Positions 11,518 to 52,907 of a stretch of DNA of 64,000 nucleotides are shown in pieces. This DNA is from an uncultured SAR86 cluster bacterium (GTDB taxonomy: Bacteria > Pseudomonadota > Gammaproteobacteria > Magnimaribacterales > D2472). Below the pieces are notes generated by a model that worked only from the letters and a program-made list of their open reading frames with translations, searched no databases and had not been told where the DNA came from. Position numbers and translations under genes: made by a program. How positions within the stretch are numbered: position 1 is the stretch's first letter; every line of letters starts with the position of its first letter. The DNA lies in the NCBI GenBank assembly GCA_902520495.1, contig CABYNW010000003.1:7645-71644 (forward strand), in the 5' to 3' direction.

Positions 11518-11526
11518 AGAGAAAAT

Positions 11527-12090
11527 ATGAAAAAACTATTTATTCAATCGGAATGTTTACTAAAAGATTCATCTCAGCTTGCATGGAATGTTTATGAATC
11601 GGGATTTGAACCAAACTACATAATAGGTGTATGGAGAGGCGGTGCCCCAATTGGAATCGCTGTTCAAGAGTTCTTAAGTTTTCTTGGCTTAAAGTCTGAC
11701 CATGTTGCTGTTAGAACTTCCTATTATTCCGGTATGGATAGTAGAAAAGATAGCGTACAAGTTTATGGATTAAACTATGTTATTAGACAGCTTGAATCTG
11801 AAGATAGGCTCTTAATTGTCGATGATGTGCATGATACTGGTAATTCAATTGCTCAAATTATTAACGATATAACATTGGCTTGTAAAAAAAATACACCTGA
11901 AATCAAAGTTGCCACTCCATATTACAAACCAAATAAGAGTCAAACTGGAAGAAAGCCAGATTTTTATATTCATGAAACTGATCAGTGGCTTGTATTTCCT
12001 CATGAGCTTGAAGGACTTACTTTAGATGAAATAAAAGCTAATAAACCCCAATTGACTGATTTAATTTCTAAGATAAAAGATAAAATTTAG
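11527..12090 (+). CDS. Type I phosphoribosyltransferase, probable hypoxanthine/xanthine/guanine PRT
   Basis: GVWRGG and PRPP-binding LLIVDDVHDTG motif, WLVFPHE C-terminal motif; purine gene context. Confidence 0.85.
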   Translation: MKKLFIQSECLLKDSSQLAWNVYESGFEPNYIIGVWRGGAPIGIAVQEFLSFLGLKSDHVAVRTSYYSGMDSRKDSVQVYGLNYVIRQLESEDRLLIVDDVHDTGNSIAQIINDITLACKKNTPEIKVATPYYKPNKSQTGRKPDFYIHETDQWLVFPHELEGLTLDEIKANKPQLTDLISKIKDKI

Positions 12091-12146
12091 ACATCAGATA
12101 AAATTCTCAGCCTTTTTTTTCTTTTTTCCTTTGGTTATAATCTGAC

Positions 12147-13610: not shown

Positions 13611-13614
13611 TTCA

Positions 13615-15180: not shown

Positions 15181-15192
15181 AAAATATCCCTG

Positions 15193-15215
15193 AAACCCTT
15201 ATTCTTATAGGGTTT
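15193..15215 (+). terminator. Hairpin after guaA (possible terminator)
   Basis: AAACCCT-N9-AGGGTTT followed by TCGTTT. Confidence 0.45.
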
Positions 15216-15217
15216 TC

Positions 15218-15238
15218 GTTTGACAAAGTTTGTCAAAC
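15218..15238. repeat. Perfect 21-bp palindrome downstream of guaA
   Basis: GTTTGACAAA-G-TTTGTCAAAC; related half-site TTTGACGAA at 15268-15276. Confidence 0.8.
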
Positions 15239-15334
15239 TTAACAAAAAGCACTACCTTTTTTAAAACTTTGACGAATTCCTGCAATTATTAGTTAAAAGA
15301 TAATTATTTATGATGTTAAAGGTTACAATAATTA

Positions 15335-17218: not shown

Positions 17219-17612
17219 AAAAAGTAAAACTGATTTAAAAGAAATATTAAAACATGTAAACACTATCGCTATTGTAGGAGCAAGCTCGAATCCTGAAAGA
17301 GATAGTTATAAGGTTATGAAGTTCTTGATAGATTATGGTTATAAAGTTTTCCCAGTTAATCCAAAAGAAAATGATATCTTAGGAAGAAAATGTTATTCAA
17401 ACTTAAAGGCAATTGAAAAAAAGATTGATATGGTAGACATTTTTCGTGCCAATGAATTTATATATGATCTTGCTAAAGAGGCAATAGAAATTAATGCAAA
17501 TATTATTTGGACACAAGAGGGCATAGTCAATGAAAAAGCTGCATCTTTAGGAGAAAAAAATGGTCTTCAAGTCGTAATGGATGAATGCCCCAAGAAGATT
17601 TTAAACTCTTGA
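17211..17612 (+). CDS. CoA-binding protein (YccU-like)
   Basis: IAIVGAS, YKVFPVNP, IDMVDIFR, WTQEGI motifs; TTG start overlapping the upstream stop. Confidence 0.88.
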   Translation: MTKKSKTDLKEILKHVNTIAIVGASSNPERDSYKVMKFLIDYGYKVFPVNPKENDILGRKCYSNLKAIEKKIDMVDIFRANEFIYDLAKEAIEINANIIWTQEGIVNEKAASLGEKNGLQVVMDECPKKILNS

Positions 17613-31833: not shown

Positions 31834-32922
31834 TTACAAACCTTGTGCTTTTGCAGCCTCTTCTCTGACTATTTCTGGAGATCCAAGGATATGTCTATTA
31901 AGACCAATTCTTTTGAACCAAAAATGAAGACCAAGCAAATCAGTAAAACCCATACCTCCATGAACTTCAGTAGCTTTTTTAGAAACCATTTTTGATACTT
32001 CTGAGATATGAGATTTTGCTAAACATGCCATTAGTTTTGAGTCTTTATTAGAATTATCAAAACTATATGCTGCATGCCATACTAATGAATAACATGGTTC
32101 TAATTCAGCGGTCATCTCAGCACACATATGCTTAACTGCTTGGAAAGATCCAATTACTCTATTAAATTGTTTTCTTTCCTTTGAATATTCTACTGCTTTA
32201 TTAATCATTGCTTGAGATGCCCCTAATGAATCAGCAGCAGTGATAATTCTTCCTGCATTCAGAGCCATCTCTATTGATAAAGAAGAAGATTTCGTATTAT
32301 CTAAAATTTCGATAGGCGTATTTTCAAAACTCATTTCTTTATAAGTTCTTGTTTTATCTACTGTAGTAAGATCTATTATTTTAATCCCTTCAGAATCTAA
32401 AGATACAAATCCAATCTGTCCTTTTTTATCACAAAGCATTACATGAGATGCATAATCAGTATCAAGAACAAATAAAGTTCTTCCAGTTACTGTATTATTT
32501 GTAATCGATAGTCCGCTCGAATCTCTTGATCCAAAATATTCAGAAAAACCAATACCAAAACTAATCAAATTTTGAGACATTTCATTAAATAGTTTTTCCT
32601 TTTGTTCGTCACTCGCTCCGAATTTAATTGCTATTGGAGCAATAACATATGGTCCTAGAAAAGGGAAGGTTGCGACACCCTCACCAAGACTTTGACTTAC
32701 TGCAGAAGCAAAAAGTAAGTCTAAACCCAATCCACCATTTTCTTCAGGAATTAAAATATTGTTTATTCCCAAATTTATTAGTCCTTGATTTAATTCATTC
32801 TTTGTTGAGAGATCCTCACCTTCAGATATCTTTTTTATGATATCAAGGGGAGCTTGATCTTCTAAAAACCTCTTTACATTATCTTGAAAGAATATTTGAT
32901 CTTCTGACAATCCAAAATACAT
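31834..32922 (-). CDS. Acyl-CoA dehydrogenase family, short (probably non-catalytic) subunit
   Basis: KERKQFNRVIGSFQAVKH, EVHGGMGFT; degenerate N-terminal FAD motifs. Confidence 0.88.
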   Translation of the reverse strand: MYFGLSEDQIFFQDNVKRFLEDQAPLDIIKKISEGEDLSTKNELNQGLINLGINNILIPEENGGLGLDLLFASAVSQSLGEGVATFPFLGPYVIAPIAIKFGASDEQKEKLFNEMSQNLISFGIGFSEYFGSRDSSGLSITNNTVTGRTLFVLDTDYASHVMLCDKKGQIGFVSLDSEGIKIIDLTTVDKTRTYKEMSFENTPIEILDNTKSSSLSIEMALNAGRIITAADSLGASQAMINKAVEYSKERKQFNRVIGSFQAVKHMCAEMTAELEPCYSLVWHAAYSFDNSNKDSKLMACLAKSHISEVSKMVSKKATEVHGGMGFTDLLGLHFWFKRIGLNRHILGSPEIVREEAAKAQGL

Positions 32923-32923
32923 A

Positions 32924-34168
32924 TTAAGCTCCTTGTTGAGTTTTTGGCTCTCTTGGCATACCCAATCCTCTTTCTGAAATTATATTTTTTTGTATTTGAC
33001 TAGTGCCGCCTCCAATTATTAAGCCTAAATAATACATATAGGTAAATTGCCATGAGCCACCATCTCTAAGATTAGGACTACCATCATATAATGTTCCAAG
33101 CTCACCCATAACATCTATACCAAATCCTTCTAGCTCATGCCTTAATTCAGTACCAATTAATTTTTGGATCATACCTGCCATTTTTACATTTTGTCCTTGA
33201 TTCAATTTAGCTGATAAAACTCTTAATGAATTTGATTGAAATGCCATTACTTTGCCTTGAAGTTTAATTAACTTATCTCTATATGCTGGATTATTTATAA
33301 CCTTTTCTCCATTAATAGTTTCTTGTTTCATTCTATCTATTAGCATATTTAATCTATTCATTGTTGCATTTGGGTCTGTTAGAGAACCTCGTTCATGGCC
33401 TAGTGTTGCATTTGCAACAGCCCAACCTTCACCTCTTTTACCAATAATATTTGCTTCAGGTATAGTAACATCAGTAAAAAATACCTCATTAAAGCCAGCA
33501 TTTAAGGTCATATCTACCAAGGGTCTAATTTCAATACCCGGAGTATCCATAGGTATTAATAGATAACTTATTCCAGCATGTTTCGGTGCATCTGGCTCTG
33601 TTCTAACTAAACAAAACATCATTTGTGAGTATTGAGCCGTACTAGTCCAGATTTTTTGACCATTAATGACCCAATTTCCATCGATTAACTCGCCCTTGGT
33701 TTGAAGGCTTGCTAGATCACTTCCCGCATTAGGCTCAGAATAACCCTGGCACCAAATCATTTCTCCATGCAAAGTTGGCTTGATATATTCTTGCTTTTGT
33801 TCTTCAGTACCAAGCTCTAAGAGGGTAGGCACTAACATATCTATACCTTGACCTCCCATTGGAGAAGGTATTCTATTTGATGCAAATTCGGCAGCAATGA
33901 TTCGGTTCTTAATAATATCTATATCCCCACCATAACCGCCATATTCCTTTGGAATAGATCTAGCAAAATAACCATTCTTAATTAATATTTTTTGCCATTC
34001 AGTTCTTGTTACTTTCATTCCATCAGATTTATCTGAGCTAGCAACTGAACTCAAAGCAGTTAATGCCCCACCTTTTTTATTAGTAATAATTACCCCAGAA
34101 AACTTTTTACAAAATTTTTGTACATCTTTTGTAAAATCTTCATACTCAGTTCCATAATTTAAATCCAT
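32924..34168 (-). CDS. Acyl-CoA dehydrogenase family, catalytic-type subunit
   Basis: WCQGYSEPNAGSDLASL, NGQKIWTS, FNEVFF, LGHER, GGGTSQIQKNII. Confidence 0.92.
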   Translation of the reverse strand: MDLNYGTEYEDFTKDVQKFCKKFSGVIITNKKGGALTALSSVASSDKSDGMKVTRTEWQKILIKNGYFARSIPKEYGGYGGDIDIIKNRIIAAEFASNRIPSPMGGQGIDMLVPTLLELGTEEQKQEYIKPTLHGEMIWCQGYSEPNAGSDLASLQTKGELIDGNWVINGQKIWTSTAQYSQMMFCLVRTEPDAPKHAGISYLLIPMDTPGIEIRPLVDMTLNAGFNEVFFTDVTIPEANIIGKRGEGWAVANATLGHERGSLTDPNATMNRLNMLIDRMKQETINGEKVINNPAYRDKLIKLQGKVMAFQSNSLRVLSAKLNQGQNVKMAGMIQKLIGTELRHELEGFGIDVMGELGTLYDGSPNLRDGGSWQFTYMYYLGLIIGGGTSQIQKNIISERGLGMPREPKTQQGA

Positions 34169-34170
34169 AA

Positions 34171-34956
34171 TCAATCCCAGTTAGGTTTTCTTTTTTCTAA
34201 AAATGCTGCAATACCTTCTTTGGCATCTCTTCCTTCAAAACATTTTGCAATTTGTTCTTGCAAATATGGTAATGCCTCATTAAAACTTTTGCTATCTTGT
34301 TTTTCATATGCTTCTAGACCAAATCGCATAGTCTCAGGAGCTAAACTAGCCAGCTCTTCTGCTAAAGTATTTACAGTCCTGTCTATATCTTTTACATCAA
34401 CTGATTTATTAATTAAACCCCAGCTCTTAGCTTTACTGGCACCTATTGGTTGCCCTCTCATAATAAAATCAAGTCCAGCTCTTTTTGGCATTACTCTAAA
34501 TAGACCAGCCATAACCATAAATGGCCATAAACCTCTATGGATTTCAGGAGCTGAAAATTTTGCATCTTTTACAGCTATTGCATGTGTTGCATTTGTTACT
34601 ATGAGAAGGGCACCTGCAAGAACAGACCCCTGAATTTTACATATTACTGGTTTATATAGATGCCTTAAAGATAGACTAATATCATCCTTGCCTTCTAGCT
34701 TAGGAACATTTGATTCTGATTTTGCCCTAGTAAGATCAGCGCCTGCACAAAAAATATCTCCTTCAGCTGCAATAATCACTACTCTGATAGAATGCTCTTG
34801 TTTTGCATAGGCTAAGGCATAATTTAATTCATTCATCATGACATTATTTAATGCATTCTTCTTTTCAGGCCTATTAAGGGTTATAGTCATAATGTTATTT
34901 TCTATATCTAGTTTAGTGGCTTGAAAATCTAAACCTTCTAAAGATAGTTTTTTCAT
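34171..34956 (-). CDS. Enoyl-CoA hydratase/isomerase family (AtuE/LiuC-like context)
   Basis: TLNRPEKKNAL, FCAGADL, PEIHRG, DAKEGIAAFLEKRKPNW. Confidence 0.88.
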   Translation of the reverse strand: MKKLSLEGLDFQATKLDIENNIMTITLNRPEKKNALNNVMMNELNYALAYAKQEHSIRVVIIAAEGDIFCAGADLTRAKSESNVPKLEGKDDISLSLRHLYKPVICKIQGSVLAGALLIVTNATHAIAVKDAKFSAPEIHRGLWPFMVMAGLFRVMPKRAGLDFIMRGQPIGASKAKSWGLINKSVDVKDIDRTVNTLAEELASLAPETMRFGLEAYEKQDSKSFNEALPYLQEQIAKCFEGRDAKEGIAAFLEKRKPNWD

Positions 34957-36732: not shown

Positions 36733-37344
36733 TTAGTTCCTTAATTTAATGCCATTTAAGATTATGCTGGTTATTGAATTTGCTGACTCTTCTGGAGATG
36801 ATTCACTCAGTTTATTTTTTTCCTTTATAAATTCCCTTCCGATTCCACCAAGTAAAATTGAGAACGCTTTTGAATCTATATCTTGTATTTCCTTAGCCTT
36901 GATGGATTGGTTTAAAAGCTCTTCCGTTAAGTTCGTAATAAAATCTGCATGATAATCAACAACTGATTCCAACCTTTTTATTTTTTCGATATCTTTAAAA
37001 AACATATTAAATTTTGGGCCTACAACCTGATTGACCATATATAGGTATTTTTCTAATTTTTCTAATGGCGACTTAACTTCAGATATCGACTCTAAAGCAT
37101 ATTTTCCATGTTTTCTTAAAATACTGTCAGTAATCATTATAATTAATTCCTCTTTACTAGGAGCAATTTCATATAAAGTTCTTAAAGATATTTTCAGATT
37201 TGATGCTATTTGAGACATTGTTAGATCAGGAACCCCTTTCTCTAGCATTTTTTCTAAATCTTCAATAATTTCATGATGTCTTTTTGTGAAAGCTTCTTGC
37301 CTTTTAGGATTTAAATTTTTTATATAATTGAAATGCAACATCAT
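36733..37344 (-). CDS. TetR/AcrR-family regulator embedded in Atu-like operon
   Basis: HTH LTMSQIASNLKISLRTLYEIAPSKEEL; ATGA overlap with upstream gene. Confidence 0.88.
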   Translation of the reverse strand: MMLHFNYIKNLNPKRQEAFTKRHHEIIEDLEKMLEKGVPDLTMSQIASNLKISLRTLYEIAPSKEELIIMITDSILRKHGKYALESISEVKSPLEKLEKYLYMVNQVVGPKFNMFFKDIEKIKRLESVVDYHADFITNLTEELLNQSIKAKEIQDIDSKAFSILLGGIGREFIKEKNKLSESSPEESANSITSIILNGIKLRN

Positions 37345-40936: not shown

Positions 40937-40964
40937 TGGTAATATTATACATCTAATATTACCA
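40937..40964. promoter_or_regulatory. Perfect 11+11-bp inverted repeat, probable repressor operator of the Atu-like operon
   Basis: TGGTAATATTA-TACATC-TAATATTACCA, 18 bp upstream of the carboxyltransferase start codon. Confidence 0.65.
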
Positions 40965-41005
40965 ATTATAAAGATAATTAAAAATATAGAAAAATAATTT
41001 TTTTT

Positions 41006-42700
41006 CTAAGCCGTTTTCTGCTCCTTTAAGCCAAGTTCCTCAATACTAATTTCTCTCATCTTATATTTTTGAACTTTTCCAGTTACAGTCATTGGAAAAT
41101 CATCTACAAATCTAATATATCTTGGCACTTTATAGTGAGCTATCTTGCCTTTACAAAATTCTTTTATATCTTCTTCAGAGGTATTTTTCCCTTCTTTTAA
41201 ACTAATCCATGCAATTATTTCTTCGCCATATTTAGGATCAGGCACACCAGTTACTTGAACTGCTTCTATATCTTGATGAGTCATTAAATAGTCTTCTATT
41301 TCTACTGGATAAACATTTTCTCCTCCACGTACTATCATATCTTTAATACGTCCTACAATATTTACATAGCCGTCCTCATCCATAACAGCACTATCTCCTG
41401 TATGCATCCAGCCATTTGAATCTATTGCATTGGCAGTACCTTCAGGATTTTCCCAATAACCTAACATAACGGAATAGCCCCTTGTACATAATTCACCAGT
41501 TTCTCCAATAGGGCATGTTTTCCCAGATTCTGAATCAATAATTTTTACTTGTACATGAGGATGAACACTCCCAACTGTGCTTACTCGTTTCTCCATTGGA
41601 GAATCAATTTTTGTTTGAAAACTTACAGGACTTGTTTCTGTCATTCCATATGCTATTTCAACATCTTTCATATGCATTAATTCAACAACCTGTTTCATTG
41701 TTTCGATTGGACAGGGTGAGCCAGCCATCAGACCAGTTCTCAAAGTTTTCAGGTTATATTCTTCAAAATTAGGCAATGCAAGTTCTGCAATGAACATTGT
41801 TGGGACACCATATAAAGCAGAAGCCTGTTCATCCTGAACTGCTTTTAATGCAGCATCAGGTTCAAAGCCTTCACTAGGATAAATTGCACAAGCACCATGA
41901 GTAAGACATGCAAGATTAGCTAAGACCATTCCAAAACAATGATAAAGAGGTACGGGAACTACAAGCCTATCCTTTTCTGTAAAATTCATAGTTACTCCAG
42001 TAAAGTAACCATTATTAAGAATATTATGATGACTTAAAGTTGCTCCTTTTGGAAATCCGGTTGTTCCACTTGTATATTGAATGTTAATTGCATCATCTAT
42101 ATCTTGATTATCTGTTCGGTCTTGTAATTTTTTATCATTAATTTCTTTCCCTAAAGTTATAAAATCTTTCCAATTATAAATACCCTTTATCTTAGATGAG
42201 GTCATTGAGATAATTGTTGTTAAATTCTTAAATTTACTTGATTGAATTTGACCTTGTATGGCATCTTTTATTTCAGGCATAATTTCACAAATCATTGATT
42301 CATAATCTGAAGTTTTAAATTGATTTTGGAAAACTAGACCTTTGCAGCCTGATTGACCCAAAACATATTCTAATTCATGAGAGCGATATGCAGGGTTTAT
42401 AGTGACTAAAATAACACCTGCCTTAGCTGCTGCATATTGTGTCAATAACCACTCTGCATTATTAGAAGACCAAATTCCGATTCGATCACCTTTTTTCAGA
42501 CCAGCGCTTATTAAAGCTTTTGCCAATTCATTAACTTTTATAGCTAATTCAGCATATGTAAATCTAATATTTTGATGAACAGAAATCAGCGCCTCTCTAT
42601 CAGAGAACTTATTAGAAATATTATTAAATACTTGACCTATAGTATTTCCCAGTAAGGGCCTGTCAGATGCACCACTTGCATAACTTAATTTATTAGACAT
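41006..42700 (-). CDS. AMP-binding acyl-CoA synthetase (ACSF2/YngI-like)
   Basis: [52 protein letters not shown]. Confidence 0.92.
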
Positions 42701-43994
42701 TCTTCATTTCTCCAAAATAATTTATTCCCTTTAGCATAAAGAAGATTCCGATGGGACCAATTAAAACAGATACTAAGGCTAAAGATTTAGCTATAGCAGT
42801 AGGATCTTGAAATATAAAATCTGTACTAGATGCTACTAAAAAAGGACCTAAAACCAATCCAAAAACACTAGTTACAACTACATAAATACCAGTTATAACT
42901 CCTCTTATTCTGTTTGGAGAGACTATTACCATGGCGCTTGATGTTCCTGCTAATGGTAGAGTTACAAAAAAACTAGCAAGCGTCACAAATATTAAAGCAA
43001 TATTAACATTTGGTTGAAAAGGTAACATAATCAAACTTAAAGATGCCATTGAAATACCAAAAATTGCTAACTTAAAATGTGGCGCTCTAATTTTATTATT
43101 AGACATTAACCTTAATACAATAGGGCCTGACAAAACCCCTGCAGAGCCAGCCAACATTGCTATTAATCCATATACCCGTCCTGATTGAATTAAATCCCAT
43201 TCATACACTCTAAGCAACATAGTAGGGACCCATGATTGAAGTCCATAAAGCAGAATTATTAAACATGAATTTCCTATAATAATTGCACCATAGACTTGCC
43301 AATTTTTTTGAATAAATTCAGCAATCTTTTTAAATGAGGGAACTTCTTTTGAATCTATCTCTGGAATTTTACGCTTTGGCTCTTTAATTGTTAAAAATAA
43401 ACAAACTACAAGAATTCCTGGTAAACCAACTGCAATAAATGTTAGTTGCCATGGAGCAACCTCTCCAATTAAAGGCAGAACTAAATTACTATCCATTTGA
43501 GAAGTCCAATCAAGCACTTGAGCTCCAAATATCATCGCAATTCCGGCTCCTAGGTATGGACCTAAAAGATAAATACTCATAGGATATGCAATTTTATCTG
43601 AATCAAAATAATCACCTAAAATAGAAATTGAACCTGGATGTACGGTTGACTCACCTGCGCCAATACCCATTCTGGCAATAAACATACTGACATAATTCTT
43701 AGAAAATCCACATGCTATTGTTGCTACACTCCATACCAATAGACCAACAATCATTACAGTAATCCTATGAGACTTATCTACTAGCCTTCCTATTGGAATA
43801 CATAATCCTACATAAGTTAAAACAAAAGCTAATCCTTGCAATGCACTTATTTGGGTATCTGTGATATTTAAATCATTTTGTATTGGAACAACTAATAAAT
43901 TTAAAACTTGACGATCAATAAAAGAAAATGTGAAACCAATTAATAAAATAAAGGCTACATACCAGCCGTAAATATTATATGTTTTGCTATGCAT
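42693..43994 (-). CDS. MFS transporter (spinster/ACS-like)
   Basis: [20 protein letters not shown] motif [11 protein letters not shown]; about 12 TM segments. Confidence 0.9.
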
Positions 43995-44005
43995 ATATAG
44001 ACTGA

Positions 44006-44854
44006 TTATTTTTTAAGATCATCAAAAATCTCTGGAAGCTCTTGATCACCATGCCCATGATTTTTTATATCACTTGTCATCATGGCATACATTTCACTTG
44101 TTACATGATGAGAAAAATCATCAGTAAAAATTCGTTTCCAGTATCTTCTGGCTACTGCTGCTGTTACTCTTCGAGTAACACGATCCACTTTCATCATATC
44201 GCCTGCAAGTTCCCATGCTCTATCAAGAAGTTTGTCTTTCGAATGTACTTCATTAACAACACCCCATTCTAAAGCCTGCTTTGCATCAAATGATTCTGCA
44301 GTATACATAAACCAGTTAGCTCTTTTTAATCCAAGTAACTTTTGAAAAACTAAAAATTGCCCATCTCCTGGTACCAACCCAACTTTAAGATGACCTTCAA
44401 AAAATTTTGTGGTGTCTGCACATAGGGTAATATCACATAAAAGTGGGAATTCAGTATGAAATCCAGGACCATTTATAACTGAAATAATTGGAACGTCAAT
44501 ATTCCATAACAAGTTTTCACATAATTTATGAGCATCTAGATATTCCCAGTCATAGTTTTCTTTTCTAAATGTTTTATTATTTTTTTCTATCTCAGCCCAA
44601 CTTTCTTTATCAAATTCTCTTAACCAGAAATCTCCTGTTCCGGTAAGAATTATCACTTCATTTTTTCTATCTGCGCCTATGATAGGAAATATTTGAGGAA
44701 GAGCTCTATGTAATTCTTTACTCCATTTAGCTTCTTTGCCATCTGTATGCATTCTTATTTCTAAAATACCTTTTTCACGCTTAAACGCAAAAAAGTCTTT
44801 AAAAAGTTCTTGATATTCCTCCAATTGCATATCGTTAACTGTATTTAAAGGCAT
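44006..44854 (-). CDS. Crotonase-superfamily beta-diketone hydrolase, 6-oxocamphor hydrolase (CamK)-like
   Basis: MHTDGKEAKWSKELH, ILTGTG, NGPGFHTE, HLKVGLVPGDG, NEV..LLDRAWELA parallel OCH motifs as recalled, with the same W-x4-H and H-x8-D spacing; GGAG RBS. Confidence 0.8.
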   Translation of the reverse strand: MPLNTVNDMQLEEYQELFKDFFAFKREKGILEIRMHTDGKEAKWSKELHRALPQIFPIIGADRKNEVIILTGTGDFWLREFDKESWAEIEKNNKTFRKENYDWEYLDAHKLCENLLWNIDVPIISVINGPGFHTEFPLLCDITLCADTTKFFEGHLKVGLVPGDGQFLVFQKLLGLKRANWFMYTAESFDAKQALEWGVVNEVHSKDKLLDRAWELAGDMMKVDRVTRRVTAAVARRYWKRIFTDDFSHHVTSEMYAMMTSDIKNHGHGDQELPEIFDDLKK

Positions 44855-44882
44855 GTTATATCTCCAAAAAATTTTTATAAAC

Positions 44883-44896
44883 TGAGAACGGTCTCA
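44883..44896. promoter_or_regulatory. Palindromic operator-like site TGAGA-N4-TCTCA (site 1)
   Basis: TGAGA-ACGG-TCTCA between divergent hydrolase and TetR genes, adjacent to a TATAAT. Confidence 0.7.
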
Positions 44897-44953
44897 AATC
44901 ATACTATAATTTCTAATTTTAAAAAACAATAATTAAAGATAATATATCCAAAT

Positions 44954-45568
44954 ATGAATAAAAACTCAGTCAAAATTGCAGTTAAAGATAAAACTAGAGA
45001 AGATATTATTAATTCTGCAATAAAGGTTATAGCAAAATCTGGAAGAGATGCTGCTTCAATTCTTGAGATTACAAAAGTTGCAAAGGTGGCTAATGGAACT
45101 TTTTATTATCATTTTAAGAATAAAGAAGAATTGCTAGATACGATAGGTGAAAAAATTCTTATCGAAATAGTTGACTCATATGAAATAGATTGGTCTTCAG
45201 CAAAAGACAATCCAGCAGTATTGTTTGCTCATGCAACAAAAGTGAACTTAATTAAGTGCTCTCAAGACCCCTTATTATTAAAGGTAATAATTGATGCATT
45301 TCATATACGTGGTAAAGTTCCTGTGATTTTAAGGGGTTATAACAAGAGCTTGATTGCGCATATAGAATTTGGGATATCAAAGAAAAAATATGATATAAAA
45401 ATTGATGATAACTTGCTTGCAAATATGCAATCAATCAATCGAAATGCTTTGATAATGATATCTCAAGGAAAAAATATTGATAAAACAATACAGCAGGCTA
45501 TCGAGGCTAAATTAAGAATATTAGGAATTTCATCTAAAGAGGCAAGAAAAATTTCTATTGACTCATAA
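44954..45568 (+). CDS. TetR/AcrR-family regulator
   Basis: TREDIINSA, ASILEITKVAKVANGTFYYHFKNKEEL HTH. Confidence 0.92.
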   Translation: MNKNSVKIAVKDKTREDIINSAIKVIAKSGRDAASILEITKVAKVANGTFYYHFKNKEELLDTIGEKILIEIVDSYEIDWSSAKDNPAVLFAHATKVNLIKCSQDPLLLKVIIDAFHIRGKVPVILRGYNKSLIAHIEFGISKKKYDIKIDDNLLANMQSINRNALIMISQGKNIDKTIQQAIEAKLRILGISSKEARKISIDS

Positions 45569-45595
45569 AAAAGGGCTATCATAAATATAGCCCTT
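45567..45595 (-). terminator. Rho-independent terminator for TonB receptor (possibly bidirectional)
   Basis: AAGGGCTAT-N7-ATAGCCCTT stem preceded on + strand by an A-run (U-tract on minus strand), between convergent genes. Confidence 0.7.
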
Positions 45596-45632
45596 ATCAT
45601 TTATAAACTTTGCAGTCTAGGGGATACGCAGT

Positions 45633-47918
45633 TTAAAAATCTTTACTAAATTGAACAGCAATACTTCTGGTTCTATCAAGAATAGAGAATTGTCCAGTCT
45701 GATTTGTATAGTTTGTTTGCTGATTCCAATTACTTGTGTATTCGTCTGTTAAGTTTTTACCTAAGATAGAAATCTTCCAATCATCTTTAGAGAATTCAAC
45801 ACGAGCGTCAATTTTACTAAAACCATCCTCTTTACTATTTGGATCATAATCAGTGTTATGCCAGACATCATCTGTCCAGTAAATTGAAATGGATGATTTC
45901 CTCATCATTCCATTTGACATTTCGTTCTCAGATGTCAATGAAAATAGACCACTATTATCAGCTGCATATAACAAAGGAAGGCCTGTATAATCACAGCTTG
46001 ATGTTCCTGCAACTGGAGTTACACCAACAGCACAGGTACCACCAGTATAATCATCATAAGTTGCGTCTAATTTTGTAAAAGATAGATCTGCAATAACTGA
46101 ATCAGATAGAAGATAGCTAAGCTCTACTTCAAAACCTTTATTTGTGCTAGGTACATTTGAGATTGTATTATATGGAGCTCCTCCATCTGGGGGATATATA
46201 TATGAACTTAACTGATTGCCATCATATTTTGAATTAAAATAATTCATACTAGCTTTCATTTTTTCATTACTTGTTTTATATCCGATTTCATATGCATCTA
46301 CTCCTTCAGATTCATAAGCACCATTATTTGCTAGAGCAGTTCCTAGTGCTTCATAACCTCCGGCTTTAAAACCATCAGAGTAAGTAGCATAAAACATAGA
46401 ATTCTCATCTTTAAAATATTGCAGCATTAATGATGGAGTTGTTGCACTTTCTGAGTATGAATTTGCTTGAAGTGTTCCATCAGCAATTGATCCCTTATGA
46501 GTAAATTTAATATTAAAATCATCAAATGTATAACCAGTTCCATTTATACCCAATGTTGTAGTTGTTCTAATATAATCTTTTTCTACATCAGTGTGCCTCA
46601 CACCTGCTGTAAGATGAAGTTTTTCTGATATGTAAAATGTTCTAGTTGCAAAAATCGACATTGTTGTGTCATCAATTTCCATTGGTCTTATTAAGGCTAG
46701 GTTTGCTGTACCAATTCCAAGGGAAGCACCCCATTCAGCAACGTAGTACCTTCCAATATTCATAGTATTTGCTGTTTCAGTATTTTGATAGTAAAAACCT
46801 ATCATCCATTGACCGTTATCAGTCGCCTCACTTGTTAATCTTAGTTCTTGTGAAAACTGTTCTGATGTTTCGTCATGAAGCCAATGAAAGAAATCTCTAG
46901 AACTGTAATCAGATTCACCTGGTATTTCAGCATCAATTTTCTGATTTGAAGTAATTGATGTTAATTCACCCATTCCTATTGTTTTCTTAATTTCAAGTAC
47001 AATAGAGTCTGAATCTAAGTGACCAAACGCGCCCTCTGAGCCACTATATCTATCATCAAACAAACCTTCAAAATCAGGAGCACCTAAACCAAGTTTACAT
47101 GTGCTAATTATGAAAGTGATATCAGCACCACTTCCATCTGCCAGACAATTAGTTTGCTGCCAACCCATTCCAGAGGAAGTATCCAATCTCCCAAGGTCAA
47201 TTTTAAGCTTGGCCTCCATATCATCACTTGAATCCCAAACCAAAGTTGTTCTCATATTAAAACCATCTTTATTAGGATAGTTATCTCCAGCAGGATTTGT
47301 GTTCTTTAACCATCCATCCATTTCATGATATTGAAATGCAAATCTTGCTTTTAAGCCATCAGAAACTCTTCCACTTCTAATTGCAGCAATAGTTTTTTCA
47401 CCATGACTTCCAAAAGTAGCTGAAATACTAGACTCACTTTCATCTGTTGGAACTTTGGTTATAAAACTTAAAGCTCCACCAATAGCATTATTTCCAAAAT
47501 AAGTTGTTTGTGGACCTTTTAATATTTCAACTCTCTCCATATCAAGTAAAACACCAGCAGTAGTCCAAGATCTTCCTTGATAGACACCATCTACAAATTG
47601 ACCAACTGACTGGTCAAATGACTGATTTGGTCCAGCCCCAACACCACGCATATAGACTTTGTTACTAAAAGTGCCTTTACTAATATTTATTCCAGGTGTT
47701 CTATCTGAAATATCAAACATCGTCATGATATTATTTTCAGCCATGATTTCACCTGTAAGAATATCAATTGAGATAGGTGTATCTAGTTCACTTTGTTCTT
47801 TTAAAGTTGCAGTAACCACAACTTCTTCAATAGATTGTTGAGCATTTATAGTTGTAAAACTAAACATTAACGCTAAAGACATTAATCCATTAAAGAAATA
47901 GCTTTTATTTATCTTCAT
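45633..47918 (-). CDS. TonB-dependent outer-membrane receptor
   Basis: Signal peptide, EEVVVTA TonB box, RVEILKGPQTTYFGNNAIGG plug motif, GFKAGG, C-terminal Phe; GGGGG RBS favours ATG 47918. Confidence 0.94.
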   Translation of the reverse strand: MKINKSYFFNGLMSLALMFSFTTINAQQSIEEVVVTATLKEQSELDTPISIDILTGEIMAENNIMTMFDISDRTPGINISKGTFSNKVYMRGVGAGPNQSFDQSVGQFVDGVYQGRSWTTAGVLLDMERVEILKGPQTTYFGNNAIGGALSFITKVPTDESESSISATFGSHGEKTIAAIRSGRVSDGLKARFAFQYHEMDGWLKNTNPAGDNYPNKDGFNMRTTLVWDSSDDMEAKLKIDLGRLDTSSGMGWQQTNCLADGSGADITFIISTCKLGLGAPDFEGLFDDRYSGSEGAFGHLDSDSIVLEIKKTIGMGELTSITSNQKIDAEIPGESDYSSRDFFHWLHDETSEQFSQELRLTSEATDNGQWMIGFYYQNTETANTMNIGRYYVAEWGASLGIGTANLALIRPMEIDDTTMSIFATRTFYISEKLHLTAGVRHTDVEKDYIRTTTTLGINGTGYTFDDFNIKFTHKGSIADGTLQANSYSESATTPSLMLQYFKDENSMFYATYSDGFKAGGYEALGTALANNGAYESEGVDAYEIGYKTSNEKMKASMNYFNSKYDGNQLSSYIYPPDGGAPYNTISNVPSTNKGFEVELSYLLSDSVIADLSFTKLDATYDDYTGGTCAVGVTPVAGTSSCDYTGLPLLYAADNSGLFSLTSENEMSNGMMRKSSISIYWTDDVWHNTDYDPNSKEDGFSKIDARVEFSKDDWKISILGKNLTDEYTSNWNQQTNYTNQTGQFSILDRTRSIAVQFSKDF

Positions 47919-47972
47919 TTTTCCCCCCAAGAGAAATTTTTTATAATAATATATTTTTAATATTATTCTGAT

Positions 47973-48061
47973 TGAGACATAGCTTAACTCTGAGACATAT
48001 CTCAGTTTTAAAGGTATACTTTCATGAACTTTATGTCAACAAAAAACTGAGAAATGTCTCA
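47973..48061. promoter_or_regulatory. Three further copies of TGAGA-N4-TCTCA operator-like site
   Basis: 47973-47986 TGAGACATAGCTTA (2 mismatches), 47991-48004 TGAGACATATCTCA (perfect arms), 48048-48061 TGAGAAATGTCTCA (perfect arms, overlaps esterase ATG). Confidence 0.75.
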
Positions 48062-49091
48062 AATAATTAAATCTTATAAAAAGTTTCTTATTGGCAATTT
48101 TTTTAATATTCCTGTTTGGGTGCTAAGAATAATTTTTCCTCAAGTCAGGACTAAGATAAGAGAATCTAAAATTGATTTTCAATCGTATGCTTTTATAAAG
48201 TTAAATCCAAAAAGCACTCTACATACAATTAAAGAAAAAGATTTACCAAAAATTAGAAAGGTAATAGAGCACAATAAGATAACTAGCAAGCTATCTGTAA
48301 AATCTAAAGACTTAGTTGAAACAAAAGATCACTCTATATTTATAAAACATAAAAATGATCAAATGTTGCTAAGAGAATATATACCTAAGAATATAGGCTC
48401 AGACAAAATAATTTTATTTTTTCATGGCGGAGGCTGGACCATTGATTCGGTCAATACTTATGATGATATGGTTAAATATTTCTCTGATTATTTAAATATA
48501 AAAATATTTTCATTTGAATACAGTCTATCTCCTGAGGAAAAGTTTCCAAATGCTTTAAAGGAGGCTGAAGAAATATATAAGTGGCTTATTAATAGTGGAA
48601 CTCCATCAAACAAAATCAGCCTATCTGGTGACAGTGCTGGCGCTCATATGGTTGCATCCTTATCTTATAAATTAGCTAAACAGGGTTCAGAAATGCCTAA
48701 CAGCTTATTGATGATATATCCTCCTTGTGATCCACAATTTAAATCTGAGTCAATAAACCTTTTTAAGGATGAATATTTTTTATTACATTCTGACTTATCT
48801 TGGTTTTGGAATAAATTTAGAAAAAATCAGACCGATGAAGATAACCCAATGTTTAATCTTTTAAAATTTGACTTAACCATAGCATTTCCACCTACTATTT
48901 TAGTAACCGGAGGCTTTGATCCTATATGTGATGAAGGGACACAATACGCAAACCTATTAAAAAAACAAGGAACAAATATTAAAATATTAAATTATCCTAC
49001 TTTATTTCATAACTTTGCATTCATGACAAAGTTACATACTGCTAGAAAGGCTGTTAATAATTTTTTAGATGAATATAAAAAGATAGTCTAA
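48054..49091 (+). CDS. Alpha/beta hydrolase, HSL-family esterase/lipase
   Basis: HGGG oxyanion motif, PEEKFP, GDSAG nucleophile Ser, DPICDEG, HNF. Confidence 0.9.
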   Translation: MSQIIKSYKKFLIGNFFNIPVWVLRIIFPQVRTKIRESKIDFQSYAFIKLNPKSTLHTIKEKDLPKIRKVIEHNKITSKLSVKSKDLVETKDHSIFIKHKNDQMLLREYIPKNIGSDKIILFFHGGGWTIDSVNTYDDMVKYFSDYLNIKIFSFEYSLSPEEKFPNALKEAEEIYKWLINSGTPSNKISLSGDSAGAHMVASLSYKLAKQGSEMPNSLLMIYPPCDPQFKSESINLFKDEYFLLHSDLSWFWNKFRKNQTDEDNPMFNLLKFDLTIAFPPTILVTGGFDPICDEGTQYANLLKKQGTNIKILNYPTLFHNFAFMTKLHTARKAVNNFLDEYKKIV

Positions 49092-49109
49092 AATAGTCAT
49101 TAATTTAAT

Positions 49110-49730
49110 ATGATTAAAATATACGCAACTGAAAATTCTAGAGCTGTCCGGCCTATATGGACTGCTGAGGAAATGGGTTTGGAGTACGATTTAATTATGA
49201 TGCCGTTTCCTCCAAGAGTTTTTATGAAAGAGTACTTAGATATAAATATTCTTGGGACCATACCATTTATGATTGACGGGAATATTGAAATGACTGAGTC
49301 AGTTGCAATTTGTCAATATTTAGTTGAAAAATATGGACCAACTGATCTTCAAGTCAAGCCAAATGAAAAAGATTATCCAGTATATTTAAATTGGCTATTC
49401 CATTCTGATGCAACATTAACATTTCCACAAACAGTGGTCCTAAGATATAAGTTTCAGGAACCTGGTGTTGCAGATGCTGCAGTTGAAGGTTATAGCAAGT
49501 GGTTTGTTTCAAGGTTAAAGCTTTTAGAAAAATCTTTAGATGGTAAAGATTATTTATGCTCAGATCGTTTTACATTAGCAGATATATGTGTAAGTTATGC
49601 AATAAATTTAGCTTCAGTTCTAGATATCAAGCAAGCCTTCAAACCAAATATTACTAGATGGAGTGAGAATTTATTTTCAAGACCAGCTTTTATTAAAAGT
49701 AAAGATTATAGATATGAGCCAAATGAATAG
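49110..49730 (+). CDS. Glutathione S-transferase family
   Basis: SRAVRPIWTAEE, GTIP, ESVAICQYL, FTLADI. Confidence 0.9.
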   Translation: MIKIYATENSRAVRPIWTAEEMGLEYDLIMMPFPPRVFMKEYLDINILGTIPFMIDGNIEMTESVAICQYLVEKYGPTDLQVKPNEKDYPVYLNWLFHSDATLTFPQTVVLRYKFQEPGVADAAVEGYSKWFVSRLKLLEKSLDGKDYLCSDRFTLADICVSYAINLASVLDIKQAFKPNITRWSENLFSRPAFIKSKDYRYEPNE

Positions 49731-50970
49731 ATTAATTGTAAATATTTTCATTATTTTTTTAGCTATTAATTTGCATGCTAATACAACAAATCATATACAA
49801 ACCATATATTTAGGATCTGGATGCTTTTGGGGGGCTGAAAAAGGTTATGAAAGCTTGAAGGGGGTTATCGATGCAGAGTCTGGTTATGCAAATGGATATG
49901 GAGTTAAACCTAATTACAGGTCAATAATTCAATTTAAAAACAAATACAATGAAAATAATTTTGCTGAGGTTGTGAAAGTTACATTCAATAGCAATGCAAT
50001 AACTTTAGAAGAGATTTTGAAACATTTTTTTGAAAACCATGACCCAACTCAACACAACAGACAAGGTAATGATGTTGGAACTCAATATAGATCAACAATT
50101 CTTTTTGAAAACAAATCTCAAAAAAATCTCGCAATCAAAATAATGGATATTTATCAAGATTTATTAAATGCTGCAGGATATGGAAAATTAAAAACAAAAC
50201 TCGAACCGTTAGATAATTTTTATCTTGCAGAAGATTACCATCAAGATTATTTAAAAAAGAATCCAAATGGATATTGCCCAGATCTTTCTACAGGCATTGT
50301 TTTTAATCAATCAGAAAAAGATTTTCATGACAATACAAGCTTACTTTCTGGAAAACATATTTTAATTTTAGATTCACAAGACTATTGTCCTTACTGTGAG
50401 AAACTTAAAAATGATGTAACAGATAAATATAAGGGTAGTATTCCTCTAACATATCGATCCTCAGATCAGCTTCATGGATTAAGTATTGAATCCCCAACCT
50501 GGGCAACACCTTCTCTAATTTTATTAGAAGATGGAAAAGAAATTTTTAGTTATCAGGGATATATTGAATCTAAAGATTTTTATAAAATTTTAGGTAGGTT
50601 TAAATTAGGCAATACTGAGGCATATGATGTTGCTTTTAATAAAGGAACTGATTCAAGATTTTGTAAAGAATATGAAATTTTTAAGAATACTCCCGAAGGA
50701 GTTTTTATAGACAAGTTAAGCGGAGAACCTTTATTTGATACTAAAGATAGATTTGTATCTCGCTCAGGTTGGCTTTCTTTTACTAAACCAGTAGATGGCT
50801 CTGTATATGAATTGCCCGATAATAGTTTTGGAATGAGAAGAACGGAAATTAGATCTGTCTCATCAGATATTCACCTAGGTCATGTTTTTGATGATGGTCC
50901 AAATGGAATGCCAAGATACTGTATTAATGCAACAGTTTTAGAATTTAAAGCTAGAAAGCAAACTATTTAA
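49723..50970 (+). CDS. msrAB: Exported MsrA-thioredoxin-like-MsrB fusion methionine sulfoxide reductase
   Basis: Signal-like N-terminus; MsrA GCFWG, QGNDVGTQYRS, AEDYHQDY, GYC; central CPYC and WATP Trx fold; MsrB HLGHVF, RYCIN. Confidence 0.88.
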   Translation: MNRLIVNIFIIFLAINLHANTTNHIQTIYLGSGCFWGAEKGYESLKGVIDAESGYANGYGVKPNYRSIIQFKNKYNENNFAEVVKVTFNSNAITLEEILKHFFENHDPTQHNRQGNDVGTQYRSTILFENKSQKNLAIKIMDIYQDLLNAAGYGKLKTKLEPLDNFYLAEDYHQDYLKKNPNGYCPDLSTGIVFNQSEKDFHDNTSLLSGKHILILDSQDYCPYCEKLKNDVTDKYKGSIPLTYRSSDQLHGLSIESPTWATPSLILLEDGKEIFSYQGYIESKDFYKILGRFKLGNTEAYDVAFNKGTDSRFCKEYEIFKNTPEGVFIDKLSGEPLFDTKDRFVSRSGWLSFTKPVDGSVYELPDNSFGMRRTEIRSVSSDIHLGHVFDDGPNGMPRYCINATVLEFKARKQTI

Positions 50971-52907
50971 TAAGTAATTCCATACCCATATTCATAAGTT
51001 GGGTTAATAGAGTCGTCAGGCAAATCCTCTTTTTGATTTAGAACAGATTCCATTGATAAAGGTATTTCAAAAGGAAGTTTCCCGGATGGATTAAATTCTC
51101 CAAAAATCCCTTCAAATATAATTTCATCTAAAACTCCAAAGGTACCAATAAGGGCAGATGAATGATTTTTAATATCTTCTAAGATTGCAGGTCTATTTAA
51201 ATCTACAACGATAACCAAATCTTGAATTTGAGAATAGTTTTTAATTTTTGATTTTATTTCATCATTAAAATTTAAATCTCCGTTTGGGAACAAAGTACTT
51301 AGAAAATTATCGAATAATCTATTTAAACCAGATTGCTGATTACCATTAAAGACAGTATGAATATACATTATGATTACATCAGCATCAGCTGGACTATCAG
51401 TTACAGTGCCATATTTTCTAGCAATGTCCTTATTCAGTCCGTCTACAAATATTTTAGTATTTTTTTTAAGAGGTAAAAGTTCCTTATTTTCAAGCAAAAC
51501 TATAGATTTTCTTTGTGCCTCAAGTCCTGCTTCAACATTTTCTTTAGTATTAACCCTAAATTTAACTTCATTTTCATTTACATAAGGGTTATCAAATAAA
51601 CCTAATTCAAATTTATTTATTAAAATTCTTTTTACTGATCTATTAATTCTTTCTTCAGAAATCTTATTTTCTGAAACTAGCTTAATAAGATGAGAGGTAT
51701 CTATTTCACCACCATATTGATCAATACCTGCATTGATAGATTTTTCATATCTTTCCTCAATCGACAGAGAATCTACTCCCCAATGTCTCCCAGTTATTAT
51801 CCCCCAATCTGAACAAATAACACCTTTAAAGCCGAGTTCTTCTCTTAATAAGTCTGTAAGAATATATTTATTAAATGCCATAGCCACATCATCATTTGTT
51901 TGTGAAACAGGTATTCCATAATAAGGCATTATTACTTTAAGATTGTTTTCAATTGCGCTTATAAATGGAATCAAATGATAGTCAAAATTATTACCTGGAT
52001 ATATTTGATTTCTACCACTAAATAAATGTGGATCGAGCCCATTTTCCTGCGGACCGCCTCCTGGAAAGTGTTTTACCATCGTATGCACACTTTGATTATT
52101 AATTTCATTACCCTGAAATCCATTCATATAAGCTAATGTCATCTTATTTGACAAGTCTGCATTAGAACCAAAAGTTCCAAAGTTTCGAGCCCAGCGTGGC
52201 TCTGTTGCTAAATCAGACATTGGATGAAGAGCTGTTCTAATTCCTACTGCAAGATATTCTTGTTTTGCAATTTCACCAAAATTTTTAACGATTGAAGGAT
52301 TATTTGTTGCTGCAAATCCTAGTTGAGAAGGCCATTTTGAAAAACCATCAACTGAAAAAGAAGCAACTCCTCCTCCTTTTGGAACTTCATGAATAGGATC
52401 AGAGCTTATAGTTATTGGAATTCCCAATCTTGTTCTTGAGGCTATCCTTTGAAATTTATTTATTTTGATAGCTAGTTCCTCAGGACTAGGATTTCCGTAA
52501 AGATTAAAATGAGAGATGTTTTTAAAAAGAATTTGTGATTCGGGTAGCTTACGACCTCTTATTAATACCTCATAAATAAACATTGGTAAATCAGCATTAA
52601 GAGTGAAGGGTGGATGAAACATTTGACCAACCTTTTCTTCTAAATACATTTGGTTAATAAGATCATCAGCTCTAATATTTGAATTAAGCCTATGATCCTC
52701 ATATATGTCTAACTTATTATTTTTATTTAAATCACGAAAAATTTTCTCATCAATATTTAACATATTAACTTCGTCATAAAGAGAGTTTTTTATTCTTATT
52801 TTCTCTGCAGGCTTAATAGTATTAAAAACAACCCATACCATACATACTATTAATAGAAATAAAAAAATTGCTAAAGATTTTTTTAAAAAGGTAGAGATGT
52901 TCAACAA
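50967..52907 (-). CDS. GH3 beta-glucosidase-like glycosidase with N-terminal membrane anchor
   Basis: TRLGIP, DLATEPRWAR, KHFPGGG, CSDWG nucleophile, PSGKLPF; start (TTG) uncertain. Confidence 0.9.
   Translation of the reverse strand: MLNISTFLKKSLAIFLFLLIVCMVWVVFNTIKPAEKIRIKNSLYDEVNMLNIDEKIFRDLNKNNKLDIYEDHRLNSNIRADDLINQMYLEEKVGQMFHPPFTLNADLPMFIYEVLIRGRKLPESQILFKNISHFNLYGNPSPEELAIKINKFQRIASRTRLGIPITISSDPIHEVPKGGGVASFSVDGFSKWPSQLGFAATNNPSIVKNFGEIAKQEYLAVGIRTALHPMSDLATEPRWARNFGTFGSNADLSNKMTLAYMNGFQGNEINNQSVHTMVKHFPGGGPQENGLDPHLFSGRNQIYPGNNFDYHLIPFISAIENNLKVIMPYYGIPVSQTNDDVAMAFNKYILTDLLREELGFKGVICSDWGIITGRHWGVDSLSIEERYEKSINAGIDQYGGEIDTSHLIKLVSENKISEERINRSVKRILINKFELGLFDNPYVNENEVKFRVNTKENVEAGLEAQRKSIVLLENKELLPLKKNTKIFVDGLNKDIARKYGTVTDSPADADVIIMYIHTVFNGNQQSGLNRLFDNFLSTLFPNGDLNFNDEIKSKIKNYSQIQDLVIVVDLNRPAILEDIKNHSSALIGTFGVLDEIIFEGIFGEFNPSGKLPFEIPLSMESVLNQKEDLPDDSINPTYEYGYGITY

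Follow-up and report, generated by a model that had tools for sequence, protein, structure and literature searches.

The window analysed here, a 64,000-nucleotide stretch of contig CABYNW010000003.1 from an uncultured SAR86 cluster bacterium (assembly GCA_902520495.1), contains an accessory island of six genes and 8.1 kb (positions 40965–49088), delimited by the insertion or deletion seen in comparison with island-less genomes of the same genus. The assembly comprises 1.09 Mb, is 85% complete and has a GC content of about 33%, the genomes of the genus measuring about 1.1 Mb; the sequencing runs that contain the stretch are labelled as marine or seawater metagenomes, and in DNA runs X1–X14 fewer than half of the sampled words of the stretch were present. 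Three minus-strand genes follow one another in the order hydrolase, carrier, ligase, at spacings of 11 nt and then −8 nt: a crotonase-fold β-diketone hydrolase homologue of 282 residues (44006–44854; ECH_1, 1e-24), an MFS carrier that is predicted to be Spinster/OATP-like (42693–43994; MFS_1, 3e-40) and an acyl-CoA ligase (41006–42700; AMP-binding, 4.5e-93, with AMP-binding_C; NCBIfam NF009233, PRK12583). The gene of a TetR-family repressor (44954–45568, plus strand; TetR_N, 1.5e-11) diverges from this operon and is convergent with the minus-strand gene of a TonB-dependent receptor (45633–47918; Plug, 1.8e-14, and barrel, 7e-23), and a hairpin resembling a bidirectional terminator lies between the two convergent genes (45571–45595; 9-bp stem with 4 GC pairs, a consensus match only). 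Divergent from the receptor gene is that of a family IV (HSL-type) esterase of 345 residues without a signal peptide (48054–49091, plus strand; Abhydrolase_3, 5e-47). A first-pass annotation, made from the letters alone, had already read these six open reading frames and their families, and the open reading frame list and Pfam matches bear it out, positions included.

Among proteins of solved structure, the hydrolase is closest (phmmer) to the β-diketone hydrolase of Anabaena (ABDH; 2j5g, 3e-45) and to 6-oxocamphor hydrolase (OCH; 1o8u, 4e-43), with which it shares 36% and 34–35% identity, respectively; the next relative, a mycobacterial ‘EchA15’, follows at 8e-19. The AlphaFold (AF2) model of the hydrolase has a pLDDT of 86 and a pTM of 0.88, and its top 10 Foldseek matches are all 1o8u, 1szo, 2j5g or 2j5s, with TM values of 0.89–0.93, root-mean-square deviations of 1.8–2.5 Å and an E value of 2e-22 for OCH/ABDH as against 4e-17 for the next structure. 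The motifs KWSKELH, GFHTE and HLKVGLVPGD are present in the translation, and residues W44, H49, H133, H155, D164 and E254 correspond in the phmmer alignment to 1o8u to W40, H45, H122, H145, D154 and E244 of OCH, so that the likeness to Trp40/His45, His122 and His145/Asp154 of this enzyme (also called CamK), drawn in the first-pass annotation, is exact. We take H145/D154, H122, H45 and E244 to have catalytic roles in OCH. Residues H49, H155, D164 and E254 likewise correspond to H43, H144, D153 and E243 of ABDH, which the available excerpt of PMC3584854 gives as its catalytic residues; the title of a reference cited in that source describes ABDH as coenzyme A-independent. Positions in the three proteins were counted by hand along the printed phmmer alignments.

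An alignment of 20 homologues, with identities down to 41%, shows no change at H49, H133, H155 or D164 and keeps E254 in at least 90% of the sequences; W44, at the position of OCH Trp40, varies among them. The C-terminus extends about 25 residues further than that of OCH, with low model confidence. The OCH/ABDH clade is of modest size: a search of 1.84 billion representatives gave at least 120 clusters (50% identity) at E ≤ 1e-30. Georgfuchsia toluolica supplies the nearest relative named by its source, a ‘putative 6-oxocamphor hydrolase’ with 61% identity. On each feature examined, in sequence and in the predicted model, the hydrolase is a member of the OCH/ABDH clade, with a crotonase fold and the full His/Asp/His/Glu set; the CamK and Anabaena enzymes are its best matches by both routes, and its interpretation as an ordinary enoyl-CoA hydratase fails. 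Judged from these residues and relatives, it is likely to cleave a β-dicarbonyl compound without CoA. One further database protein, P0005 (ENA, 221 residues), shares 94% identity with the hydrolase over 61% of it and carries precomputed Carboxyl_trans and ECH_1 matches; it could stem from an artefact of gene calling or from a variant whose hydrolase lies directly against the carboxyltransferase.

Within the genus the island is either present or cleanly missing. A 17.9-kb DNA query across the region, compared with all 41 genomes of the genus, located it in 8 (G000, G028, G063, G020, G003, G029, G021 and, in three contig pieces, G033); it is cleanly absent, with the flanks joined, in 24, and 9 are indeterminate owing to contig ends or to the lack of a match. 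In island-less genomes the match to the flank that runs from AtuA to the carboxyltransferase stops at about 40964 and that to the GST/Msr flank resumes at about 49089–49110, 12–40 bp further on in the same contig. The empty sites read in six genomes consist of the carboxyltransferase start, a conserved TGGTAATAT...ATATTACCA palindrome, about 35 nt and the GST start; seven loci had been fetched for this comparison, and L113 (G023), in which the GST start was not matched by the pattern, was left out. The indel spans exactly the six genes, and the ligase therefore belongs to the island and not to the neighbouring Atu-like operon. Gene order is the same in G028, G020, G003, G029, G021 and G063 as far as the contigs reach, with proteins 68–99% identical. 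Across the order, 7 of 266 genomes have an ortholog of the hydrolase, all of them in one of the 22 genera, the present one. The six genes are gained and lost together as a block, which was probably acquired horizontally; the distribution fits acquisition by the island-bearing subclade. Its GC content is like that of the genome, and Pfam scans showed no integrase, transposase or tRNA inside it. An AAGAT-type repeat at both junctions is too short and too AT-rich to count. On the GST/Msr side, an open reading frame for an MsrA–thioredoxin–MsrB fusion (49663–50970, a GTG call) overlaps the end of the GST gene by 68 nt, its real start probably lying further in, and the GH3 glycosidase gene of the window (50967–52907) is absent between Msr and NMO in G020 (L105), G063 (L116) and L125.

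The arrangement recurs in other lineages. Twenty metagenome loci were examined, of which 16 are genus-like (GC 0.32–0.35) and all show the same order. In L132 (GC 0.43) the genes for the esterase (49% identity), receptor (66%), TetR (60%), hydrolase (72%) and MFS carrier (63%) are arranged as in the window, and that for the ligase (55%) has moved to the other strand, where it follows another ligase gene to which it is unrelated. L133 (GC 0.41) reads receptor–TetR–hydrolase–MFS to its contig ends, and the contig of L136 is too short to show an arrangement. L134 (GC 0.57) and L004, the latter a 5.9-Mb Pseudomonadales metagenome-assembled genome (hydrolase 67%, MFS 67%, TetR 50%, receptor 45%), have the order receptor–hydrolase–MFS with TetR behind, and SnoaL-like genes and a second MFS gene nearby. 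The first-pass annotation held that hydrolase, receptor, MFS carrier, ligase and TetR belong to one system; their genes are seen together in the island-bearing genomes of the genus and in L132, and a refutation for want of co-occurrence fails. In L004, two SnoaL-like genes of the polyketide-cyclase fold (4752–7155) are divergent from the core, with genes for a Rieske oxygenase and for another TonB receptor 6–10 kb away.

The two divergent intergenic regions of the island share a palindrome. The pattern TGAGA-N4-TCTCA has three matches in the 64 kb, at 44883, 47991 and 48048, all within these regions, whereas 0.08 would be expected by chance and none of 100 shuffles reached three; the three are also its sole matches in the 1.09-Mb assembly. 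They define the cores of three putative operators: O1 in the spacer between the hydrolase operon and tetR (44875–44904, core 44883–44896), O2 in the receptor/esterase spacer (47983–48012, core 47991–48004) and O3, which overlaps the start codon of the esterase gene (48040–48069, core 48048–48061). A single palindrome family in both regions, as the first-pass annotation had it, is thus what the counts support. Over 36 sites the consensus is a 22-bp palindrome, AAACTGAGA-N4-TCTCAGTTT. The core of O1 lies 29 nt upstream of the hydrolase ATG, and this site is kept in five congeners as well as in L132 and L133; all three sites are retained in G020, G003 and G029, though the flanking proteins have drifted to 68–78% identity. 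Of the sites of L132, one stands in the esterase/receptor spacer, one between tetR and the hydrolase gene, and one 53 nt before the ligase gene in its new place; L004 and L134 have one site each, upstream of the receptor gene, and L133 also has a site within the reach of its contig. In 33 island-less genomes, core matches are scattered and number 0–4 each, compared with 0–2 for a control pattern.

Since the motif follows tetR through genomes of 33%, 43% and 57% GC and marks every transcription unit, the six genes very probably form one regulon. The idea of six genes under one TetR, put forward in the first-pass annotation, is borne out by the shared operator in both divergent promoters and by the presence or absence of the whole block. 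A helix–turn–helix domain in TetR and a palindrome in its own divergent promoter are both present, and the palindrome co-varies with tetR across lineages; we infer from this that TetR binds AAACTGAGA-N4-TCTCAGTTT. The regulon also bears on the view that no pathway exists here, and that a TetR-controlled MFS efflux or detoxification pair has come to lie among unrelated genes. Pairs of TetR and MFS genes are commonly efflux modules, and several of the NCBIfam matches of the TetR are efflux repressors, all of them below cutoff. An efflux pair would, however, leave unexplained why the same operator precedes the receptor, esterase and hydrolase operon genes, and the ligase gene in L132, and why the six genes are gained and lost together, and we consider it very unlikely.

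Two further alternatives retain the regulon and alter the chemistry of the hydrolase. In the first, the pathway would be CoA-dependent: the ligase would act first, on the imported and de-esterified acid, and the crotonase-fold enzyme would then work on the acyl-CoA, for instance as a BadI-like 2-oxoacyl-CoA ring hydrolase, a hydratase or an isomerase. The ligase and crotonase-fold genes share one operon, this operon reads toward acyl-CoA carboxylase and dehydrogenase genes, and the best 60 of 132 solved relatives of the hydrolase are all CoA enzymes by name, except for four OCH/ABDH sequences. The hydrolase nevertheless lies closer, by 26 orders of magnitude, to the two CoA-independent enzymes than to the structure of any CoA-dependent one, and it keeps the His/Asp/His/Glu set of OCH/ABDH; moreover, the ligase gene occupies a separate transcription unit in L132 and has no ortholog within reach in L004 and L134. 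We regard a CoA-dependent pathway as unlikely.

The second alternative would place the enzyme in the OCH/ABDH clade with another reaction, on a β-keto ester or lactone, or in decarboxylation or C–C formation, serving the catabolism or remodelling of a different lipid-like ester. We know of no established physiological substrate of ABDH, the clade (at least 120 clusters) appears in very different gene contexts and W44 is not invariant in the family. Against this stand the conservation of all catalytic residues and the company that family members keep, which includes enzymes of 1,3-dicarbonyl chemistry: SDR, cyclase-family, BKACE and FAH proteins (compare the available part of PMC10470551). A different reaction therefore also seems improbable to us, and CoA-independent cleavage of a β-dicarbonyl is the function that we prefer for the hydrolase.

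The gene contexts themselves come from 80 genome loci with a member of the hydrolase family, in 11 of which a TonB-dependent receptor gene, and in 6 an AMP-ligase gene, lies within 10 kb; in L009 and L041 the ligase gene is directly beside the hydrolase family gene. L009 (5333–15369) combines its OCH-family gene with genes for DUF1329, 3-hydroxyacyl-CoA dehydrogenase, DUF362, BKACE, AMP-ligase, ChsH2-like and thiolase proteins. Four loci from marine Gamma- and Alphaproteobacteria (L036, L038, L044 and L048; about 4000–17500 in each) share a conserved hydrolase cluster with genes for a LysR regulator, two cyclase-family proteins, GST, SDR, an MFS carrier, the hydrolase, a TonB receptor, a sulfatase, a methyltransferase-like protein and an FAH-family hydrolase, and may represent a sister system for a sulfated 1,3-dicarbonyl precursor. 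Cyclase-family and BKACE enzymes perform the two C–C cleaving steps of anaerobic phloroglucinol degradation, according to the available part of PMC10470551, and with such neighbours the OCH family can be said to keep company with other 1,3-dicarbonyl chemistry. A receptor, an MFS carrier, a hydrolase and a de-conjugating enzyme, an esterase in the island and a sulfatase in the four loci, may be a recurring design.

The remaining proteins offer clues to the substrate, although searches of NCBIfam and of solved relatives led to no specific family name for the receptor, the MFS carrier, the esterase or the TetR. The ligase matches NF009233, a ‘fatty acid CoA ligase family’ model, at 868.9 bits (cutoff 832), and the L132 ortholog, at 55% identity, is also above this cutoff (838 bits). 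The best solved relative of the MFS carrier is 6e8j, a bacterial MFS transporter (2e-29) that we take to be a bacterial Spinster homologue, followed by SPNS2 sphingosine-1-phosphate carriers; its atlas neighbours are MFS_1 and OATP clusters, one of them named ‘spinster family’, and its match to TIGR00893 reaches 98 bits, far under the cutoff of 395. To judge by these relatives it looks like a Spinster/OATP-type carrier of amphipathic anions, which points to a lipid-like substrate, the substrate class being a guess. The best NCBIfam match of the TetR is a Bacillus-type FadR (54 bits, below cutoff), a regulator that presumably senses acyl-CoA.

In the esterase, the motifs FHGGGW, GDSAGA, GGFDP and LFHNF can be read as HGGG, GDSAG, Asp and His, which we assume to be the motifs of HSL family IV; its match to the LipP1 equivalog model stays at 184 bits (cutoff 350), and its best solved relatives are generic HSL carboxylesterases. 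A periplasmic location was considered and dropped: there is no cleavable signal peptide, and the N-terminus is conserved, amphipathic and charged in six orthologs. The M-S-Q start is kept in the four genus-like orthologs examined, and the solved HSL esterase 4ypv (348 residues) aligns with the island protein from residue 75, the N-terminal length being that of soluble HSL esterases. The esterase most likely works inside the cell, as its sequence indicates, and the order proposed in the first-pass annotation, in which ester cleavage in the periplasm precedes import across the inner membrane, loses its support with the missing signal peptide. Together, the esterase, the type of MFS carrier, the ligase model, the sub-threshold FadR match and the lack of a diketone-making enzyme suggest a hydrophobic ester that holds, or unmasks, a 1,3-dicarbonyl.

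The receptor gene probably starts at the ATG at 47918, the open reading frame call extending to a TTG at 47930; its product begins with a signal-peptide-like MKINK... and has a TonB-box-like EEVVVTA, both judged by eye. Its only family matches are weak ones to haem and siderophore receptors, made through the plug domain, and these favour an explanation by metal-chelate piracy, in which a β-diketonate or ester metallophore would be imported through the receptor and an MFS permease and destroyed by the esterase and the C–C hydrolase to free the metal, as Fes does with enterobactin. TonB-dependent receptors, MFS carriers, esterases and AMP-binding enzymes resemble the parts of siderophore systems, and β-diketones chelate metals. 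The TetR regulation is, on the other hand, of the substrate type, no specific siderophore-receptor model comes near its cutoff, and neither promoter has a Fur-box-like site that exceeds background, the best agreeing with the consensus at 12/19 and 11/19 positions, a score of 12/19 being reached at 183 positions of the window. We hold metal piracy to be a far-fetched explanation.

Beginning 87 nt downstream of the ligase gene are genes for a carboxyltransferase, a biotin carboxylase/BCCP, a second TetR, AtuA (4e-156), a hydratase and two acyl-CoA dehydrogenases, and the families uphold the earlier description of this neighbour, a same-strand operon, as Atu-like. A perfect 11+11 palindrome, TGGTAATATTA-N6-TAATATTACCA (40937–40964), lies outside the island on the 5′ side of the carboxyltransferase gene. 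It occurs once in the window, is kept in all 6 of the island-less genomes that were read and probably serves as operator for the second TetR (36733–37344), whose TetR_N match is only 1.8e-4. The ligase gene reads toward this operon, and a consensus scan found no intrinsic terminator between the ligase and carboxyltransferase genes, which decides nothing either way. In three island-bearing genomes, a 68-bp copy (85–87% identity) of the hydrolase/TetR promoter–operator (window 44870–44937) stands between the hydratase gene and that of the first acyl-CoA dehydrogenase (L116 (G063) 1590–1680, G020:C34:1724–1791 and G033:C5:5909–5976), oriented to drive the two dehydrogenase genes, and the same palindrome precedes the dehydrogenase genes in contigs L119 and L120, at about 12840. 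The window lacks this copy because its hydratase and first dehydrogenase genes overlap, at 34171–34174. The two adjacent dehydrogenase genes of the window (31834–34174; 416 and 362 residues, 1-nt gap), the second without a significant middle-domain match, form a pair reminiscent of heteromeric dehydrogenases for bulky acyl-CoAs.

Whether the island feeds its neighbour was a further point of the first-pass annotation, and here the evidence is circumstantial and divided: the promoter copy in three island-bearing genomes favours it, and the neighbour’s own operator and the lack of adjacency elsewhere speak against it. Entry of the product into the neighbouring acyl-CoA enzymes is a possibility that we rate as clearly short of even. 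Membership of the island genes in the AtuA/carboxylase operon was rejected, the operon being intact without the island and the island lying elsewhere in other lineages.

In four metatranscriptomic libraries, the work of three studies, there are contigs that match parts of the ligase, MFS, hydrolase, TetR and receptor genes and the 5′ end of the esterase gene at 92–99% identity; they show presence in RNA libraries only, and not level, strand or transcript ends, and DNA carry-over is possible. Positions 48241–48908 of the esterase gene and parts of the ligase gene are uncovered in the four RNA runs, which is no evidence of silence. Two contig joints, 39438/40834 and 47331/47438, come from single low-depth contigs with short sides and were disregarded.

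We consider it moderately probable that the island is a self-contained catabolic regulon for the uptake and C–C cleavage of a scarce, probably amphipathic or lipid-like, ester-bearing 1,3-dicarbonyl compound or its precursor. The TetR, bound to O1–O3, would silence the hydrolase–MFS–ligase operon, its own gene and those of the receptor and the esterase until a ligand arrives, either the substrate or the acyl-CoA product. The compound would cross the outer membrane through the TonB receptor and the inner membrane through the Spinster/OATP-like carrier, and in the cytoplasm the HSL esterase would remove an acyl or alkyl ester. The hydrolase would then cleave a C–C bond of the β-diketone in a retro-Claisen reaction, with the His155/Asp164 dyad, His133, His49 and Glu254, to give a keto-acid, and the PRK12583-type ligase would convert the acid into a CoA thioester for β-oxidation-type enzymes, which in this genus are plausibly those of the adjacent set of acyl-CoA dehydrogenases and Atu-like carboxylase.

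Several observations weigh against this reconstruction. A CoA-dependent crotonase-fold enzyme would also account for the ligase in its operon, a TetR with an MFS carrier is also the classic efflux pair, and we know of only two characterised members of the OCH/ABDH clade. The island has no dehydrogenase or oxygenase able to make a β-diketone, so that the substrate must be assumed to contain the 1,3-dicarbonyl already or to expose it on de-esterification. Orthologous esterase and ligase genes do not lie within 10 kb in the 57%-GC relatives L004 and L134, which reduces the strictly conserved core to four genes. The flank from AtuA to the carboxyltransferase is 79–95% identical to the window in island-bearing genomes and 69–72% in island-less ones; the island-bearing genomes thus probably form one subclade and record one or few events, not eight independent observations. 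The Atu-like operon, for its part, is core in the genus, has its own conserved palindrome and stands intact in 24 genomes without the island; in other lineages the island is not beside such an operon, and any link is confined to this genus.

Comparison with known systems sets the island apart. OCH (CamK) of Rhodococcus sp. NCIMB 9784 (1o8u/1szo) has the same crotonase fold, and its residues W40, H45, H122, H145, D154 and E244 are all matched; it presumably acts behind a camphor hydroxylase and a 6-hydroxycamphor dehydrogenase in the camphor pathway, whereas the island hydrolase sits with a TonB receptor, an MFS carrier, an esterase and a ligase under a TetR. No P450 or dehydrogenase gene was found in the island, nor a camphor-type pair in the flanks examined, and the Rhodococcus camphor pathway is not matched. 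ABDH (Alr4455) of Anabaena (2j5g/2j5s) is the best sequence match and shares the catalytic residues; the available excerpt of PMC3584854 describes no comparable regulon for it. The same type of reaction, in which a 1,3-dione is hydrolysed by retro-Claisen cleavage and degradation continues by CoA-linked steps, is carried out on unrelated folds by the steroid ring-A hydrolase SRAH, an amidohydrolase_2 protein (PMC11780191, in part), by the curcumin hydrolase CurH, which is thiolase-like (PMC11407993, in part), and by dihydrophloroglucinol cyclohydrolase (DPGC), of the ‘cyclase’ family (PMC10470551, in part).

The Pseudomonas Atu cluster with AtuR resembles the neighbouring operon in its AtuA, carboxylase, hydratase and dehydrogenase genes and in having its own TetR and palindrome; the island, by contrast, forms an indel of its own, its TetR and operator differ from those of the operon, and genes for the oxidation of geraniol or citronellol were not seen in the window. 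An outer-membrane receptor, an inner-membrane carrier, degradative enzymes and a local repressor with operators in divergent promoters are features that the island has in common with TonB-dependent utilisation loci and with catabolic operons repressed by a TetR, but the key enzyme of the island is predicted to be a CoA-independent C–C hydrolase from a clade with two characterised members. The island is not a camphor pathway, not part of an Atu cluster and not a Fur-type siderophore system. Titles and abstracts in the literature yielded no description of such a locus, which supplementary gene tables could still mention.

In its most far-reaching form, which we offer as speculation and think unlikely to hold in full, the island would be the first defined physiological pathway built on an OCH/ABDH-type C–C hydrolase outside camphor degradation. 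A subpopulation of streamlined marine bacterioplankton would use it, as a TonB-dependent regulon, to harvest algal β-dicarbonyl lipids or terpenoid esters of a class so far overlooked as a carbon source, cutting off a branched acid and passing it through the ligase to the products of the dehydrogenase and Atu-like carboxylase genes, and the sulfatase loci L036, L038, L044 and L048 would be sister systems for sulfated forms. If this were true, ring-opened acetylated fucoxanthin-type keto-carotenoids or acyl-phloroglucinol-like lipids would be examples of substrates. The cargo of TonB receptors in marine Gammaproteobacteria with small genomes is largely obscure, and in the island synteny, a shared operator and joint presence or absence link one such receptor gene to five further genes, one of them with a rare and diagnostic predicted chemistry, which narrows the substrate. 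The OCH/ABDH clade is met in this locus in a natural, regulated setting, beside a repressor that would be expected to respond to the substrate or the product of the pathway. The clean presence or absence of the island within the genus marks a niche difference between co-existing populations, one that can be tracked in metagenomes.

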